From assembly GCF_055900595.2 (NCBI RefSeq), contig NZ_CM148325.1: 64,000 nt of DNA; one strand, 5' to 3'. The notes under the pieces were generated by a model. The model did not search any database, was not told the DNA's origin, and saw only the letters and a list, made by a program, of their open reading frames with translations. The translations under genes and the position numbers were made by a program. Shown piece by piece: positions 1,332 to 57,548 of this stretch. Position 1 is the first letter of the stretch. Each line of letters opens with the position of its first letter.

Positions 1332-2084
1332 ATGGCTGTAACTAAGCTGGTTCTGGTTCGTCATGGCGAAAGTCAGTGGAACAAAGAAAACCGTTTTACC
1401 GGTTGGTACGACGTGGATCTGTCTGAGAAAGGCGTAAGCGAAGCAAAAGCAGCTGGTAAGCTGCTGAAAGAGGAAGGTTACAGCTTTGATTTTGCTTACA
1501 CCTCTGTGCTGAAACGCGCTATCCATACCCTGTGGAATGTGCTGGACGAACTGGATCAGGCATGGCTGCCCGTTGAGAAATCCTGGAAACTGAACGAACG
1601 TCACTACGGTGCGTTGCAGGGTCTGAACAAAGCGGAAACTGCTGAAAAGTATGGCGACGAGCAGGTGAAACAGTGGCGTCGTGGTTTTGCGGTTACTCCG
1701 CCGGAACTGACTAAAGATGATGAGCGTTATCCGGGCCACGATCCACGTTACGCGAAGCTGAGCGAGAAAGAGCTGCCACTGACGGAAAGCCTGGCGCTGA
1801 CCATTGACCGCGTGATCCCTTACTGGAATGAAACTATTCTGCCGCGAATGAAGAGCGGTGAGCGCGTGATCATCGCCGCACACGGTAACTCGTTACGTGC
1901 GCTGGTGAAATATCTCGATAATATGAGCGAAGAAGAGATTCTTGAGCTGAATATCCCGACTGGCGTGCCACTGGTTTATGAATTCGACGAGAATTTCAAA
2001 CCGCTGAAACGCTATTATCTGGGTAATGCTGACGAGATCGCGGCGAAAGCAGCGGCCGTTGCTAACCAGGGTAAAGCGAAGTAA
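1332..2084 (+). CDS. gpmA: 2,3-bisphosphoglycerate-dependent phosphoglycerate mutase
   Basis: ORF 1317..2084; start placed at the internal Met ([17 protein letters not shown]...), giving the remembered 250 aa GpmA; RHG histidine-phosphatase motif present. Confidence 0.9.
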
Positions 2085-2107
2085 ACGTCATTCGCTTAAA
2101 AATGAGA

Positions 2108-2137
2108 AAGCCGACTGCAAGTGAGTCGGCTTTTTTG
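2108..2137 (+). terminator. intrinsic terminator after gpmA
   Basis: gccgactgcaagtgagtcggc hairpin followed by tttttt. Confidence 0.65.
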
Positions 2138-2149
2138 TTGCTAACAATG

Positions 2150-2184
2150 GAGCACATTGCCTGATGCGACGCTGCGCGTCTTGT
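2150..2184. repeat. REP (repetitive extragenic palindrome) element
   Basis: gcctgatgcgacgctgcgcgtcttgtcaggcctac, a typical E. coli REP sequence between the convergent gpmA and aroG. Confidence 0.55.
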
Positions 2185-2241
2185 CAGGCCTACGGTGATT
2201 CATCGGATAACCACTGTGACGGCGCATCCGACAATTAAACT

Positions 2242-3294
2242 TTACCCGCGACGCGCTTTTACTGCATTCGCCAGTTGACGTAACAGGGCATCGGTATCTT
2301 CCCAGCCAATGCAGGCATCGGTGATGCTCTTGCCATAGGCCAGCGGTTCCCCACTCTCGAGGCTCTGATTGCCTTCCACCAGATGGCTTTCCACCATCAC
2401 GCCAATAATGGCCTTTTCGCCACCGGCAATCTGCTGGCAAACGTCAGCACAAACATCCATCTGCTTTTTGAATTGTTTCGACGAGTTAGCATGGCTGAAA
2501 TCGATCATCACCTGTGCTGGCAGGCCTGCTTTGTTCAGCCCTTCTTTCACTTCAGCAACGTGCTTCGCGCTGTAGTTAGGCTCTTTACCGCCGCGCAGAA
2601 TGATATGGCAATCGCCGTTACCGCTGGTGTTCACGATCGCCGAATGCCCCCATTTCGTTACGGACAGGAAGCAGTGCGGCGCACCGGCGGCATTAATAGC
2701 ATCGATAGCCACTTTAATCGTACCGTCGGTGCCATTTTTGAAGCCGACCGGACAAGAAAGCCCAGACGCAAGTTCGCGGTGCACCTGCGATTCCGTTGTA
2801 CGTGCGCCAATTGCTCCCCAGCTCATCAGGTCCGCGAGATATTGCGGGGTGATCATATCCAGGAATTCACCCGCTGCTGGCAGACCGCTGTCGTTAATAT
2901 CGAGCAGTAATTTACGGGCAATACGCAGACCGTCGTTGATCTGGAAGCTGTTATCCATATGCGGATCGTTAATCAGCCCTTTCCAGCCCACTGTGGTACG
3001 CGGCTTTTCAAAGTAGACGCGCATTACGATTTCCAGCTCATCTTTCAGCTCTTCACGCAGCGCCAGCAAGCGAGTGGCATACTCTTTAGCCGCGACGGGA
3101 TCATGAATAGAACACGGACCAATCACCACCAACAGGCGATCATCATTACCTTTCAGGATCTTATGGATCGCTTTTCGGGCATGGGCGACCGTATTCGCGG
3201 CATTTTCAGTAGCAGGGAATTTTTCCAGCAATGCGACAGGAGGAAGTAACTCTTTGATTTCTTTGATGCGTAAATCGTCGTTCTGATAATTCAT
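2242..3294 (-). CDS. aroG: Phe-sensitive DAHP synthase (3-deoxy-7-phosphoheptulonate synthase)
   Basis: 350 aa ORF matching remembered AroG end to end (MNYQNDDLRIKEIKELLPP...). Confidence 0.95.
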   Translation of the reverse strand: MNYQNDDLRIKEIKELLPPVALLEKFPATENAANTVAHARKAIHKILKGNDDRLLVVIGPCSIHDPVAAKEYATRLLALREELKDELEIVMRVYFEKPRTTVGWKGLINDPHMDNSFQINDGLRIARKLLLDINDSGLPAAGEFLDMITPQYLADLMSWGAIGARTTESQVHRELASGLSCPVGFKNGTDGTIKVAIDAINAAGAPHCFLSVTKWGHSAIVNTSGNGDCHIILRGGKEPNYSAKHVAEVKEGLNKAGLPAQVMIDFSHANSSKQFKKQMDVCADVCQQIAGGEKAIIGVMVESHLVEGNQSLESGEPLAYGKSITDACIGWEDTDALLRQLANAVKARRG

Positions 3295-3364
3295 GTCTGT
3301 TCCAGTGTTGCCATACTTATCTTAGTGAATGCAATACTTCCAATCTATATCTTCCGTCAGAATG

Positions 3365-3382
3365 TGTAAACGGGGTTTTACA
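3365..3382 (-). promoter_or_regulatory. TyrR box in the aroG promoter
   Basis: TGTAAA-cggggt-TTTACA fits TGTAAA-N6-TTTACA exactly, about 70-90 bp upstream of the aroG start codon. Confidence 0.6.
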
Positions 3383-3609
3383 CTATGAACGGATTAATCC
3401 TGGAATTAGCAAGAAAAACGCCAGATTGTCGCGAAAAACGAGATCTCTCCTACAATTTCTAACTGTAACTCCTTTGTTTGTTAATTATTTCAAGATTCTC
3501 TGCTGCGTTTTATAACCTGGCTGAAATCTTAAACCATTGCCTTATATTCACCTGCAAATGCACTGTTGGAAGAGGTTATCCGACATAACGACCATAACAG
3601 GAGCATCCT

Positions 3610-7084: not shown

Positions 7085-7440
7085 AGCAAAAAAGCGCCTT
7101 TAGGGCGCTTTTTTTACATTGGTGGGTCGTGCAGGATGACTCGCTTCGCTCGCCCTTCGGGCCGTCGCCGCGAGCGGCTCCGTTGTTTCGCTACGCTCAA
7201 CTCGAACCTGCTGCAGGTTCGAATCTTTGAATATCCCAGATAGCAAAAAAGCGCCTTTAGGGCGCTTTTTTACATTGGTGGGTCGTGCAGGATGACTCGC
7301 TTCGCTCGCCCTTCGGGCCGTCGCCGCGAGCGGCTCCGTTGTTTCGCTACGCTCAACTCGAACCTGCTGCAGGTTCGAATCTTTGAATATCCCAGATAGC
7401 AAAAAAGCGCCTTTAGGGCGCTTTTTTTACATTGGTGGGT
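7085..7440. repeat. tandem repeat, about 157 bp unit, a little over two copies, downstream of lysQ
   Basis: The unit starts (agcaaaaaagcgcc...) at 7085, 7242 and 7398. Each unit holds an A-run/GC-hairpin/T-run (agcgcc-ttta-gggcgct) and a 17 nt copy of the tRNA-Lys 3' end (tggtgggtcgtgcagga). Confidence 0.7.
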
Positions 7441-7508
7441 CGTGCAGGATTCGAACCTGCGACCAATTGATTAAAAGTCAACTGCTCTACCAACTGAGCT
7501 AACGACCC
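7433..7508 (-). tRNA. lysQ: tRNA-Lys (UUU)
   Basis: Reverse complement matches the E. coli tRNA-Lys sequence through the CCA end; seventh gene of the operon. Confidence 0.95.
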
Positions 7509-7640
7509 CTTGCGGGATTATGCTGCTTTAATCATTCAGGATGGTGGGTCGTGCAGGATGACTCGACTTCGTCTCGCCCTTCGGGCCGTTGCTGACGCAA
7601 CGTTATCCTTCACGTTCTCTACCAGTAACCACCTTTAAAT

Positions 7641-7716
7641 TGGTGGGTCGTGCAGGATTCGAACCTGCGACCAATTGATTAAAAGTCAACTGCTCTACCA
7701 ACTGAGCTAACGACCC
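7641..7716 (-). tRNA. lysZ: tRNA-Lys (UUU)
   Basis: Identical tRNA-Lys sequence on the minus strand. Confidence 0.95.
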
Positions 7717-7862
7717 ATACGGGTGTTACCTGAATGATTTCTACTCGGAACCAATCTTTAAGATTAGTGGGTCGTGCAGGATGACTCGCTTCGCTCGCCC
7801 TACGGGCCGTTGCTGACGCATCGTTATCCTTCACGCTTAACATCTGAGTTTGATGTTAAAAC

Positions 7863-7938
7863 TGGTGGGTCGTGCAGGATTCGAACCTGCGACCAATTGA
7901 TTAAAAGTCAACTGCTCTACCAACTGAGCTAACGACCC
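7863..7938 (-). tRNA. lysY: tRNA-Lys (UUU)
   Basis: Identical tRNA-Lys sequence on the minus strand. Confidence 0.95.
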
Positions 7939-7941
7939 GAG

Positions 7942-8017
7942 TGGTGGGTGATGACGGGATCGAACCGCCGACCCCCTCCTTGTAAGGGAGGTGCTCTCCC
8001 AGCTGAGCTAATCACCC
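7942..8017 (-). tRNA. valZ: tRNA-Val (UAC)
   Basis: Reverse complement matches E. coli tRNA-Val(UAC) with CCA end. Confidence 0.95.
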
Positions 8018-8068
8018 GATACTGCGCTGGATACTACAAACTACTTCCACCGAACCCACCGTAATTAG

Positions 8069-8144
8069 TGGTGGGTCGTGCAGGATTCGAACCTGCGACC
8101 AATTGATTAAAAGTCAACTGCTCTACCAACTGAGCTAACGACCC
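8069..8144 (-). tRNA. lysW: tRNA-Lys (UUU)
   Basis: Identical tRNA-Lys sequence on the minus strand. Confidence 0.95.
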
Positions 8145-8146
8145 GG

Positions 8147-8222
8147 TGGTGGGTGATGACGGGATCGAACCGCCGACCCCCTCCTTGTAAGGGAGGTGCT
8201 CTCCCAGCTGAGCTAATCACCC
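8147..8222 (-). tRNA. valT: tRNA-Val (UAC)
   Basis: Identical tRNA-Val sequence on the minus strand. Confidence 0.95.
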
Positions 8223-8357
8223 GATACTGCGCTGGATACTACAACTAACTAGGTTAGTGGTGGGTCGTGCAGGATGACTCGACTTCGTCTCGCCCTTCGG
8301 GCCGTTGCTGACGCAACGTTATCCTTCACGTTTTACTACCGCTTCCACCTTAGCGAT

Positions 8358-8433
8358 TGGTGGGTCGTGCAGGATTCGAACCTGCGACCAATTGATTAAA
8401 AGTCAACTGCTCTACCAACTGAGCTAACGACCC
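8358..8433 (-). tRNA. lysT: tRNA-Lys (UUU)
   Basis: Identical tRNA-Lys sequence; first gene of the operon (transcribed from high to low coordinates). Confidence 0.95.
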
Positions 8434-8597: not shown

Positions 8598-9389
8598 TTA
8601 CATCGCGTTCAGACGTTTTTGTGCCTGTTTAGCGCCATCAGTACCAGGGTATTTACTGATAACCTGCTGGTATACGGCTTTCGCTTTTGCGGTGTCACCT
8701 TTGTCCTGCATGATGACGCCGACTTTAAACATCGCATCTGCAGCCTTCGGTGACTTCGGATAGTTTTTCACTACCGAAGCAAAATAATACGCCGCATCAT
8801 CTTTTTTACCCTTGTTGTAGTTTAACTGACCCAGCCAATAATTGGCGTTTGGCAGGTAAGTTGAATCAGGGTAATTTTTGATGAAATTCTGAAATGCCAC
8901 CATTGCGTCATCCTGGCGGGATTTATCCTGCACCAGCGCAATAGCTGCATTGTAATCCGTGTTTGCATCACCGCTTTTCACCGGCGCGCCAGCATTCGCA
9001 GTACCAGCATCAGCTGTCGGCGTCGTTGATGCCGCCGCACCGCTATGATCGCCGCTGGTTGATTGCGCCGCTGCACCACCGCTGCTGAGGCTATCGATCT
9101 GCAACAGGATCTGCTTTTGCCGCTCCACGACCTGATTCAGTTGATACTGATTTTCCTGAATCTGACCACGCAGGGAATCAATATCGGATTGATTATCAGA
9201 GAGTTGTTGCTGGAGTTGGGTTAAAAGCTGGCTGTGAGCATTAGAAATACGCTCAAGTTGAGTGACGCGGTCTTCGACCGAGCCTGAGCCGACACTACTG
9301 ATTGGTGCCTGAGCAAAAGCGGCCCAGGGGGCCGCTATACCAACCAGTAACGACAGACTCAATAGTTGATGTCTGAAGTTACTGCTCAT
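8598..9389 (-). CDS. cpoB: cell division coordinator CpoB (YbgF), TPR protein
   Basis: 263 aa ORF with signal peptide, coiled-coil Q-rich segment and TPR-like C-terminus; downstream of pal. Confidence 0.9.
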   Translation of the reverse strand: MSSNFRHQLLSLSLLVGIAAPWAAFAQAPISSVGSGSVEDRVTQLERISNAHSQLLTQLQQQLSDNQSDIDSLRGQIQENQYQLNQVVERQKQILLQIDSLSSGGAAAQSTSGDHSGAAASTTPTADAGTANAGAPVKSGDANTDYNAAIALVQDKSRQDDAMVAFQNFIKNYPDSTYLPNANYWLGQLNYNKGKKDDAAYYFASVVKNYPKSPKAADAMFKVGVIMQDKGDTAKAKAVYQQVISKYPGTDGAKQAQKRLNAM

Positions 9390-9398
9390 GCAATTCTC

Positions 9399-9944
<546 letters not shown>

Positions 9945-35424: not shown

Positions 35425-35507
35425 GTGTTCTGTCCATCCTTCAGTAATCGTTATCTTTTAAACCGTAGACCGAATATTTCGTATCGCTTCCGGGTATTGT
35501 CGGTCAC

Positions 35508-35676
35508 CCGTAGGCCTGATAAGACGCGCAAGCGTCGCATCAGGCATCGCTTGTCGGATGCGGCGCGAGCGCCTTATCCGACCTACATTGATGGTCCCCG
35601 TAGGCCTGATAAGACGCGTCAGCGTCGCATCAGGCTTCAATTGCCGGAGAAAGCGATAATGCCTCATCCGGTCTAC
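35508..35676. repeat. REP/BIME cluster in the sucB-sucC intergenic region
   Basis: Four imperfect palindromes of the gcctgataagacgcg...cgcatcaggc / gccggatgcggcg type. Confidence 0.6.
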
Positions 35677-35698
35677 AGTGCAGGTGAAACTTAAACTA

Positions 35699-36930: not shown

Positions 36931-39732
36931 TTATTCGACGTTCAGCGCGTCATTAACCAGATCTTGTTGCTGTTTCTGGTGAACGGACATATACCCTACC
37001 GCCGGAGAGGCGGAGGCCGGGCGGCCTGCATAACGCAGAGAAGCCCCAAACGGAATCACTTCACGGAAATGATGCTGGCTGCAGTACCATGCGCCCTGGT
37101 TGAGCGGCTCTTCCTGGCACCAGACAAAATCCTTGACGTGAGCAAACTGCTGCAACACTTCCTGCATCGCTTTATGCGGGAACGGGTAGAGTTGCTCGAT
37201 ACGCACAATGGCGACATCGTGTTGATTGTTCTTACGGCGTTGTTCCAGCAGGTCGTAATAAACCTTACCAGAACACATCACTACGCGCTTCACACCCTTA
37301 GGATCAAGCTCGTCGATTTCACCAATGGCAGGCAGGAAGGTGCCGTTCGCCAGTTCTTCGAGGCTGGAAACCGCCAGCGGATGACGCAGCAGGGATTTCG
37401 GCGACATCACCACCAGCGGACGACGCATCCCGCGCAGCGCCTGACGACGCAGCATGTGGTAAACCTGTGCCGGGGTAGACGGTACGCACACCTGCATGTT
37501 TTGTTCAGCACAAAGTTGCAGATAACGTTCCAGACGCGCGGAGGAGTGCTCCGGCCCCTGCCCTTCGTAACCGTGCGGCAGCAACATCACCAGGCCACAC
37601 ATCCGACCCCATTTCTGTTCGCCAGAGGAGATGAACTGGTCGATAACCACCTGCGCACCGTTAGCGAAGTCACCAAACTGCGCTTCCCAGATAGTCAGCG
37701 TGCGCGGCTCTGCGGTGGCATAACCGTATTCAAACGCCAGCACTGCTTCTTCAGACAGTACGGAGTCCCAGACGCGGAACGCGCCCTGACCATTATGGAT
37801 ATGTTGCAGCGGCGTGTAAGTAGAACCGTTGGACTGGTTGTGGATCACCGCATGACGATGGAAGAAGGTACCGCGACCGGAGTCTTCACCCGACAGGCGG
37901 ACCGGAATGCCTTCATCAACCAACGTGGCGTAAGCGAGGTTTTCCGCGCCGCCCCAGTCGAACAGTTTCTCACCGGCAGCCATTGCCTGGCGATCGCCAT
38001 AAATCTTGGCAACGCGAGACTGCATTTCAACCGCTTCCGGCACCGTACTGATACGTTTAGCCAGTTCCTGCAGGCGCTTCATCTCAACTTTGTTCGGGTA
38101 CTCTTCGTCCCATTCGTGGTTGAGGTACGGCGACCAGGTGAAAGAGTGCATGTTCATCGGACGCCACTCTGCTACCACGCAATCGCCAGCATCCAGCGCA
38201 TCGCGATACAGGTTAACCATCTCAGTGGCATCTTCCAGCGTCGCGACCTTTTCCTGCTCCAGCTTGTCAGCGTAGATTTTGCGCGGCGTCGGATGTTTTT
38301 TGATTTTCTGATACATCAGCGGCTGAGTTGCACTCGGCTCGTCGGCTTCGTTGTGGCCGTGACGGCGGTAGCACACCAGGTCGATGAAGACATCACGTTT
38401 AAAGGTGTTACGGAAATCGAGCGCCAGACGGGTCACAAAGGCAACGGCTTCCGGATCATCCGCATTAACGTGGAAAATCGGTGCCTGTACCATCTTGCCG
38501 ATATCAGTACAGTACGGCGTAGAACGGGCATCCAGCGGGTTAGAGGTGGTGAAGCCAACCTGGTTGTTGATAACGATACGTACCGTACCGCCAACTTCAT
38601 AACCACGCGCTTTCGACATGTTCAGAGTTTCCTGAACCACGCCCTGCCCGGTCACTGCGGCATCACCGTGGATGGTGATTGGCAGCACTTTGTTGCTGCT
38701 CGGCTCATCGAGTCTGTCCAGACGGGCGCGAACAGAACCGATAACTACCGGGCTTACAATCTCAAGGTGAGACGGGTTAAACGCCAGCGCCAGGTGAACC
38801 AGGCCGCCATCGGTCTGGAAGTCAGACGAGAAGCCCATGTGGTATTTCACGTCGCCCGTGCCGAGGTGTTCTTTATGTTTACCGGCAAATTCGTCGAACA
38901 AGTCTTGCGGTTTTTTACCCAGCACGTTAACCAGCACGTTCAGACGACCACGGTGCGCCATCCCGAGAACCACTTCACGGGTGCCGCTATTGCCAGCATG
39001 GCGGATCATCTCTTTAAGCATCGGGATTAACGCGTCACCGCCTTCCAGCGAGAAGCGTTTTGCGCCAGGGAATTTTGCGCCGAGGTAACGTTCGAGGCCT
39101 TCAGCGGCGGTCAGTTCGCTTAAGAAGCGTTTTTTCTCTTCGCTATTGAAAGTCGCGCGACCAGACTCGATACGCTGTTGGATCCAGCGTTTTTCTTCGG
39201 TGCTGGTAATGTGCATGTACTCGGCACCAATCGGGCCGCAGTAGGTTTGCTTGAGGGCTTCCAGCAGCTCGCCGAGTTTCATGGTTTCTTTGCCGCTGGC
39301 AAATGAACCGACGTTGAAGGTCTCCTGGAAGTCTGCTTCGGTCAGATCGTGGAAAGACGGATCCAGATCGGCCACTTTATCTTGCTGCCACAGTCCCAGC
39401 GGATCGAGATTCGCATGCTGGTGACCGCGGAAGCGGTATGCGTTAATGAGCTGCAGGACTTTAACCTGCTTCACATTGGTGTCAGGGTCGGAGATCGTTG
39501 AAGAGTAACGTGAAGCGTCTTTCGCCAGGCGGCGGAAATATTCACGCGTTTGAGAGTGGAATTGATCCGGTTTGACTCCCGTACCAGGTAACTGCTGGAA
39601 CGTCGAACGCCAGTTAGCGTCAACCGAGTCAGGATCGGTTAAGAAGTCTTCATAGAGCTGTTCTATCCAGCTCTGGTTTGCGCCAGAGAGGTAAGAAGAG
39701 TCCAACCAGGCTTTCAAAGCGCTGTTCTGCAT
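36931..39732 (-). CDS. sucA: 2-oxoglutarate dehydrogenase E1 component
   Basis: 933 aa ORF matching remembered SucA ([31 protein letters not shown]...). Confidence 0.95.
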
Positions 39733-39893
39733 CGTGATCCCTTAAGCATCTTTTTTATGCTTACTTCGCCGTGGATACTACCACGCACAGTGATGTGCGT
39801 GCCGGGGTTCACTTGCGAGCTCTTGTCTACGTAGTGGCTCGCGAAGGAACCTTTAAAAACTGTCTTAGTGTCAGGGGCAGTTTTTAAAGATTT

Positions 39894-40078
39894 CCTGCAT
39901 TTCTTTTGTAGGCCGGATAACGCATTCACGCCGCATCCGGCGCTGTTTGCCTGATGCGACGCTTGCGCGTCTTATCAGGCCTACGATTCCTGCATTTCTT
40001 TTGTAGGCCGGATAACGCATTCACGCCGCATCCGGCACTGTTTGCCTGATGCGACGCTTGCGCGTCTTATCAGGCCTG
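39894..40078. repeat. two tandem copies of a ~95 bp REP-containing unit (sucA-sdhB intergenic)
   Basis: tcctgcatttcttttgtaggccggataacgcattcacgccgcatccggc...gcctgatgcgacgcttgcgcgtcttatcaggcct occurs twice head-to-tail with single-base differences. Confidence 0.6.
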
Positions 40079-40081
40079 GGT

Positions 40082-40798
40082 TTACGCATTACGCTGCAAC
40101 AACATCGACTTGATATGGCCGATGGCGCGCGTCGGGTTCAGCCCCTTCGGACATACACTGACGCAGTTCATGATGCTGTGACAGCGGAATACGCTGAATG
40201 CATCGCTCAAACCGTCGAGGCGGCTGTCAGTCTCGGTATCACGGCTATCGATCAGGAAACGATATGCCGCTAACAAGCCTGCCGGGCCGATAAACTTATC
40301 GGGATTCCACCAGAAAGACGGACAAGAGGTTGAACAACATGCGCAGAGAATACATTCATACAGCCCGTCGAGTTTTTCGCGCTGCTCTGGCATCTGTAAA
40401 TGCTCGCGAGCTGGCGGATTTTGTCCATTATTCAACAGGTAAGGCTTAATTTTCTCATATTGCGCATAGAATTGTCCCATGTCTACCACCAAATCGCGGA
40501 TCACCGGTAAACCTGGCAGCGGGCGAATCACAATCTTCTTGCCCGGCTGGTTGAGTGCCGAAATCGGGGTAATACAGGCCAGACCATTCTTACCGTTCAT
40601 GTTCAGACCGTCGGAACCGCACACACCTTCACGGCAGGAACGACGGAACGACAGGCTGGGATCTTTCTCTTTCAACTGGATAAGCGCATCCAGCAGCATC
40701 ATGTCGCGACCTTCTTCCGCTTCCAGGGTGTAATCCTGCATACGCGGAGCATCATCAACATCCGGGTTATAGCGATAAATTGAAAACTCGAGTCTCAT
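40082..40798 (-). CDS. sdhB: succinate dehydrogenase iron-sulfur subunit
   Basis: 238 aa ORF with Cys clusters typical of SdhB. Confidence 0.95.
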   Translation of the reverse strand: MRLEFSIYRYNPDVDDAPRMQDYTLEAEEGRDMMLLDALIQLKEKDPSLSFRRSCREGVCGSDGLNMNGKNGLACITPISALNQPGKKIVIRPLPGLPVIRDLVVDMGQFYAQYEKIKPYLLNNGQNPPAREHLQMPEQREKLDGLYECILCACCSTSCPSFWWNPDKFIGPAGLLAAYRFLIDSRDTETDSRLDGLSDAFSVFRCHSIMNCVSVCPKGLNPTRAIGHIKSMLLQRNA

Positions 40799-57434: not shown

Positions 57435-57548
57435 GCCTGATAAGACGCTTAATGCGTCTTATCAGGCCTGGATGTCCCTGCAATATATTGAATTTGCACT
57501 ATTTGCCAGGCCGGAGAAGGCGTTCACGCAGTATCCGGCATCCGGGCA
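57435..57548. repeat. REP elements downstream of dtpD
   Basis: gcctgataagacgcttaatgcgtcttatcaggc and gccggagaaggcg...ccggcatccgggc palindromes. Confidence 0.5.

Follow-up and report, generated by a model that had tools for sequence, protein, structure and literature searches.

A two-unit BIME-2 in the sdhB–sucA spacer, very probably one allele of an array of variable unit number within the sdhCDAB–sucABCD operon

The spacer between sdhB and sucA is a study site for RNase III processing and for the control of sucA by the sRNA GlnZ, almost always in K-12. The window analyzed here, a stretch of 64,000 nucleotides of contig NZ_CM148325.1 (RefSeq assembly GCF_055900595.2; one strand, 5′ to 3′), carries in this spacer a repeat which an initial annotation, made from the letters alone, described as a head-to-tail duplication of a ∼95 bp REP-containing unit with a possible effect on sdh-suc transcript processing. 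The question raised by the locus is whether this repeat is a duplication specific to the strain or an ordinary BIME, and whether the number of its units could matter to the operon.

The existence and the place of the repeat were evaluated first. Tandem Repeats Finder reported a period-95 array of 2.0 copies at 39892–40077 (98% matches, no indels, score 365), and a repeat search returned two 91-nt copies, 39892–39982 and 39987–40077, at a spacing of 95 nt and with one mismatch (90/91 identical). The recovery of two near-identical 95-bp units by the repeat searches rules out a chance match. The units are oriented head-to-tail as had been claimed; the coordinates first given for them, 39894–40078, were right to within 2 nt, and the base differences pointed out between the copies, i.e., GGCGCTG against GGCACTG and CTACGAT against CTGGGTT at the unit ends, are both present. 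The spacer extends over 349 bp (39733–40081) between two genes on the minus strand. The ORF list places a 933-aa ORF, sucA, at 36931–39732 (start at 39730–39732) and a 238-aa ORF, sdhB, at 40082–40798, and these identities agree with the RefSeq annotation of loci 98–100% identical to the window, confirming the location between sucA and sdhB. The array is wholly extragenic, with the sdhB stop (40082) on one side and the sucA start (39732) on the other. Two small ORFs across it, 39714–39929 (minus strand) and 40049–40273 (plus strand), were taken as spurious since they run through the REP palindromes. The features of the spacer are as follows, with the evidence for each in parentheses.

39733–39891, minus strand: sucA-proximal spacer, given as context (alignments, promoter scan, literature)
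39848–39892, minus strand: conserved AU-rich hairpin with 15-nt arms, not duplicated (inverted repeat, folds, alignments)
39892–39986, no strand assigned: BIME-2 unit 1, sucA-proximal, 95 bp (Tandem Repeats Finder, repeat search, unit extraction)
39908–39941, plus strand: Y-type REP of unit 1, GTAGGCCGGATAACGCATTCACGCCGCATCCGGC (pattern search, sequence; alone folds at −17.5 kcal/mol)
39949–39984, plus strand: Z2-type REP of unit 1, GCCTGATGCGACGCTTGCGCGTCTTATCAGGCCTAC (pattern search; alone folds at −21.9 kcal/mol)
39985–40002, no strand assigned: 18-nt inter-unit linker GATTCCTGCATTTCTTTT, the window-type junction (sequence, junction queries, unit extraction)
39987–40081, no strand assigned: BIME-2 unit 2, sdhB-proximal, 95 bp (Tandem Repeats Finder, repeat search, unit extraction)
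40003–40036, plus strand: Y-type REP of unit 2 (sequence, pattern search, fold)
40044–40079, plus strand: Z2-type REP of unit 2 (sequence, pattern search, fold)
40082–40084, minus strand: sdhB stop codon, TAA (ORF list, annotation of homologous loci)

Unit 1 is made up of a 16-nt part of the linker, the inverted Y REP, a 7-nt linker, the Z2 REP, and the first bases of the next linker. Unit 2 shows a single-base change at 40040, an A where unit 1 has G, and its last bases are CTGGGT in place of CTACGA. On the mRNA strand, the Y REP of unit 1 reads ...GCCGGATGCGGCG...CCGGCCTAC. The REP content noted at the outset was borne out by pattern searches, which located the Y core GCCGGAT...ATCCGGC at 39912–39941 and 40007–40036 and the Z2 arms GCCTGATGCGACGCT..GCGTCTTATCAGGCCT at 39949–39982 and 40044–40077. 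Over the whole window, the Y pattern had five matches and the Z2 pattern four, with ∼0 expected, and all of these lay in the array or at a handful of further REP sites. We take the palindromes to be of the Y and Z2 types on the basis of the consensus sequences of these types and of the match to the Rfam Y-l-Z2 model. An isolated Y-like REP palindrome, GCCGGAGAAGGCGTTCACGCAGTATCCGGC, with one mismatch to the pattern is present at 57510–57539. Elsewhere in the window, a cluster at 7120–8433, in which five RtT repeat matches are interspersed among seven tRNA genes, and a match to the CpoB/ybgF thermometer (9360–9498, 142 bits) look like ordinary features of the chromosomal region.

BIME-2 elements are defined as multiple tandem copies of Z2 and Y REPs, the two facing in inverse directions across a short linker S, with the number of units at a given locus differing between strains (Ton-Hoang et al., 2012, PMC3333891). 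The plus-strand order at sdhB–sucA is GTAG...(Y)...7 nt...(Z2)...CTAC, such that REP and inverted REP alternate across a short linker; the 7 nt are too short to hold a long IHF-binding L motif as in BIME-1. Together with the presence of both Y and Z2 REPs, the array has the extragenic location and the variable tandem number of this class, and in a relative it is targeted by IS1397. The feature is thus very probably a two-unit BIME-2 and one of the alleles of an array whose unit number varies, located in the sdhB–sucA spacer of the sdhCDAB–sucABCD operon. Both the kind of element and the polymorphism in unit number from strain to strain are already known.

The comparison of copy number with K-12 and other strains, the check which the initial annotation had proposed, was run on 5,426 complete E. 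coli genomes with junction-specific queries; K-12 carries Z1-Y-Z2 and other strains 0, 2, 3, or 4 units. The window-type junction was found in 301 of these genomes, from varied hosts. Strains of the UTI89/APEC type have GGTTTCTGCATTTCTTTT where the linker of the window has GATTCCTGCATTTCTTTT, and their exact junction was found in 1,084 genomes; either type of unit–unit junction occurs in 1,378 of the 5,426 (∼25%). An assembly artefact was considered and rejected, as the window-type junction recurs in independent complete genomes. The junction query matched a median of two places per genome and a maximum of six, counts which hint at arrays of up to six units; in the one case checked, the number of places agreed with the number of units (4 places for 3.9 copies).

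The alleles were surveyed with a flank-only query, from which 60 even ranks were sampled across 5,425 genomes. The REP-free form accounted for 19 of the 60 sampled rows (∼32%) and the K-12-type for 24; two units were present in 12 rows (4 window-type and 8 UTI89/APEC-type) and three units in 3. One further row was a locus disrupted by an IS1397 insertion (SK0832), and one, a hit in NZ_CM142663.1, was intermediate. The latter spans 763 bp from flank to flank, outside all the main classes, and may join the 173-bp segment of the UTI89/APEC type to a Z1-Y-Z2 cluster resembling that of K-12. IS1397 is a BIME-specific insertion sequence of the IS3 family, known to target the palindromes of these elements. 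In SK0832, the loop of the Z2 REP nearest to sdhB contains an annotated IS1397-family transposase, bordered on each side by TTG (extracted locus 2036–3485), and the insertion parts sdhCDAB from sucABCD by ∼1.4 kb.

The forms themselves were defined by aligning representative spacers and extracting their units. The REP-free form is a 200-bp spacer (strain 360D-1), in which a 38-bp segment with the GC-rich hairpin GCCGGGGGATTTCCCCGGC replaces the array (extracted locus 434–633, corresponding to window 39895–40081). In the K-12 form, a 300-bp spacer, a single Y-Z2 pair is accompanied by a short REP of the Z1 type and a linker of 12 nt. The 349-bp two-unit spacer of the window is identical to that of strain Z0117EC0005. 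The APEC E18006/UTI89-like form (360 bp) also has two units, joined by GGTTTCTGC, and a divergent sucA-proximal segment of 173 bp. On this UTI89/APEC-type backbone, longer arrays were read directly, with three units in GmF067 (455 bp) and with four in CFSAN067215 and SSGNw2 (550 bp). The spacer therefore exists in E. coli in at least five structural forms, namely, REP-free, Z1-Y-Z2, and two, three, and four BIME-2 units. As regards the choice between an ordinary BIME and a strain-specific duplication, both descriptions hold in part: the duplication is not present in all E. coli, at least two units being found in about a quarter of the genomes, yet it is a BIME-2.

The close likeness of the two copies could also be read as a recent duplication, private to the lineage of this strain and newly arisen from a single-unit ancestor. 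The copies differ at only 1 of 91 aligned bases, and two variants, GGATAAC and CTGTTTGCC, are common to both units of the window and absent from the units extracted from other strains. These observations would be expected of a young duplication, but the spread of the window-type junction over the 301 genomes from varied hosts is at odds with a private event. The internal difference, G in unit 1 and A in unit 2, is position-specific and common to UTI89/APEC-type arrays as well, and a Y-Z2 allele with a single unit was not seen among the genomes sampled (60-row survey and near-identical loci). Moreover, Escherichia albertii NBRC 107761 carries 3.9 copies of the 95-bp unit at the same locus, with 95% matches between copies (extracted locus 1550–1919). 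A private, recent origin is hence very improbable, and the window is better described as carrying one allele of an older variable array.

Since E. albertii has about four units at the locus, the array either predates E. coli or moved between species. An exact 22-nt hairpin-pattern scan of species-representative genomes identified E. albertii only, a result in which exact matching probably missed other species. The E. albertii array is accompanied by the UTI89/APEC-type sucA-proximal segment, which is suggestive of an ancestral state with several units together with this segment. The allele of the window, from the sequence comparison, looks like a mosaic of the K-12-type 162 bp beside sucA and a pure Y-Z2 array resembling those of UTI89/APEC-type strains. 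The pattern of shared variants is one of concerted evolution, the outcome to be expected if tandem units repeatedly undergo unequal exchange, conversion, or re-amplification. Unequal recombination or slippage at replication, acting between direct repeats of 95 bp, would account for the gain and loss of units. Alternatively, amplification catalysed by TnpAREP could add or remove them, in line with the models published for BIMEs (Ton-Hoang et al., 2012, PMC3333891). The same process of gain and loss would keep the copies alike.

Whether the second unit has consequences depends on what surrounds it. According to the literature, sdhCDAB and sucABCD are co-transcribed from Psdh, the spacer holds an internal promoter and a site of internal termination, and processing by RNase III/RNase E takes place within it, which supports the internal promoter and the RNA-processing sites proposed for this region at the outset. 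The window, K-12, and the REP-free allele show no difference over the 162 bp adjoining sucA (39733–39894), as seen by unit extraction and alignment. Judged by position, the reported sucA promoter, the 5′ leader, and the GlnZ target should all lie within 39733–39891, a putative assignment. A consensus scan of 39650–40150 gave no sigma-70 promoter-like site or terminator on either strand. Owing to the identity of the 162 bp with K-12, the duplication leaves the stretch adjoining sucA untouched, and any effect would have to arise through how many REP hairpins the read-through transcript contains. The change relative to K-12 is limited to the middle of the cluster, where a further pair of Z2 and Y takes the place of the Z1 REP.

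Directly downstream of the array on the transcript, and within this stretch of 162 bp, is the AU-rich hairpin, with arms at 39848–39862 and 39878–39892. All alleles that were compared, and E. albertii as well, have it unchanged, and it may be the “long stem-loop” cut by RNase III that later work cites from Cunningham and Guest (1998). At the other end of the array, the stem of the sdhB-proximal Z2 REP starts 5 nt past the sdhB stop on the mRNA. REPs within 15 nt of a stop codon were reported to stall terminating ribosomes (Liang, 2015, as related by a citing paper). The REP is almost as close to the stop in K-12, and it is not the one contributed by the duplication.

Folding of the mRNA-sense spacer of the window gave −147 kcal/mol (z = −7.65 against shuffles), the corresponding values being −120 kcal/mol for K-12 and −71 kcal/mol for the REP-free allele. 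Each unit of the window can fold either into a long Z2:Y duplex of ∼30 bp (−43 to −47 kcal/mol) or into two separate REP hairpins (−39 to −41 kcal/mol). In these models, little energy separates the two forms, and during transcription the single hairpins would be the first to fold. In the read-through transcript, each unit would accordingly be present as two REP hairpins or as one long Z2:Y duplex. By analogy with REP elements described elsewhere, such hairpins could block 3′ exonucleases and stabilize the upstream sdhCDAB message after cleavage, could add to the attenuation of read-through, and, as hairpins or duplexes, may offer double-stranded RNA to RNase III. At the DNA level, the array may bind gyrase like other BIME-2 elements. 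Gyrase cleavage has been found enriched in BIME-2, including the sucB–sucC BIME-2 of the same operon; the K-12 element at sdhB–sucA is absent from the BIME-2 list of the gyrase study. The second unit probably shifts these RNA and DNA effects only in degree, if at all.

A stronger proposal would be that the number of BIME-2 units sets the extent of sdhCDAB read-through into sucABCD and the cutting of this transcript; for example, each additional unit would add a Z2:Y duplex for RNase III and give rise to lineage-specific sdh:suc ratios. Several observations are consistent with it. RNase III is reported to cut the 5′ region of sucA at three sites in the spacer, and SucA to fall in an rnc mutant. 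In K-12 RNA-seq, the rnc/WT coverage ratio peaks at NC_000913.3:758515, labeled “P67/sucA” (Gordon et al., 2017), a position which was mapped to the loop of the K-12 Z1 REP (position 166 of the extracted K-12 locus; gene coordinates verified), i.e., within the REP cluster. Further, each unit of the window is able to form the ∼30 bp duplex, and the alleles range from 0 to 4 or more units. Against this, the two hairpins of a unit have nearly the stability of its long duplex and would precede it, REP-free alleles are common, and the 162 bp near the sucA promoter are unchanged. Unit number also varies within otherwise identical flanks, as neutral repeat instability predicts. Such control by copy number is therefore unlikely, and it is equally doubtful that unit number acts as a heritable and reversible tuning knob on this TCA-cycle operon through RNase III/exonuclease processing or read-through. 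If it did, strains with 0, “one and a half” (K-12), 2, 3, and 4 or more units would differ in the ratio of succinate dehydrogenase to 2-oxoglutarate dehydrogenase, the multi-unit alleles being typical of UTI89/APEC-like strains and E. albertii. As about a third of E. coli are without any REP at this site, the contribution of the array is dispensable and may be close to neutral.

A different function for the units was suggested by the Rfam model naRNA4 (RF02564), which matched both of them on the plus strand with 72.0 and 73.2 bits, above the gathering score of 59.5. naRNA4 is a 77-nt Y-l-Z2 unit from the six-unit BIME-2 array REP325 (Qian et al., 2015, PMC4550694). The two units could on this ground be thought to encode naRNA4-like nucleoid-associated small RNAs acting in trans with HU, the more so as naRNA4 itself comes from a BIME-2 array. 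However, the model was built from a Y-l-Z2 unit and describes any Y-linker-Z2 unit, so that it is matched by every BIME-2, and its match here merely recognises the BIME-2 unit. The strong matches are also antisense to the operon, the operon-sense strand reaching only 39.7 and 41.5 bits, and the scan described above found no promoter-like site on either strand from which such an RNA would start. It is thus extremely unlikely that the units are genes of this kind, and their identification as a BIME-2 array is retained.

REP and BIME clusters and the variation of their unit number between strains have been described since the 1990s, and the sdhB–sucA allele of the window is present in hundreds of sequenced genomes; it carries little weight as a discovery. 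Its relevance lies in the use of the spacer as a model. With at least five spacer forms in E. coli, and with the Z1 REP that holds the RNase III peak absent from the window, the K-12 results on processing sites and GlnZ need not transfer to other lineages.

Among the known systems, the nearest by locus is the well-known REP cluster of K-12 at sdhB–sucA (“P67/sucA”; Gordon et al., 2017), which shares with the window its place, the sdhB-proximal Y-Z2 pair, and the sucA-side 162 bp. What in the window is a second complete Y-Z2 unit corresponds in K-12 to a short Z1 REP with a 12-nt linker; the K-12 cluster is thus an “atypical” BIME of the order Z1-Y-Z2, that of the window a pure BIME-2 of two units. 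A second element of the same transcription unit is the BIME-2 in the sucB–sucC spacer (window 35505–35680), with Z2 REPs at 35512–35545 and 35602–35635 on the minus strand, degenerate Y partners, and one naRNA4 match (78.8 bits); the K-12 version of the spacer is a hot spot at which gyrase cleaves multiple sites. Similar to the sdhB–sucA array, it consists of Z2/Y REP pairs, but its Z2 REPs are opposite relative to the transcript, its Y REPs are more degenerate, and its linkers are different. REP325, the six-unit BIME-2 of yjdM–yjdN which gives naRNA1–6 (Qian et al., 2015, PMC4550694; RF02564), resembles the window in its tandem Y-linker-Z2 units and differs in locus, linkers, and unit number, six against two, as well as in that the strong match of the window is antisense to its operon. 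The array agrees best with the BIME-2 family as a whole (Gilson/Bachellier classification, per Ton-Hoang et al., 2012, PMC3333891), with which it shares alternating Y and Z2 REPs, a short linker, an extragenic position, a tandem number that varies between strains, and targeting by IS1397, and no difference of substance was seen among the features compared.
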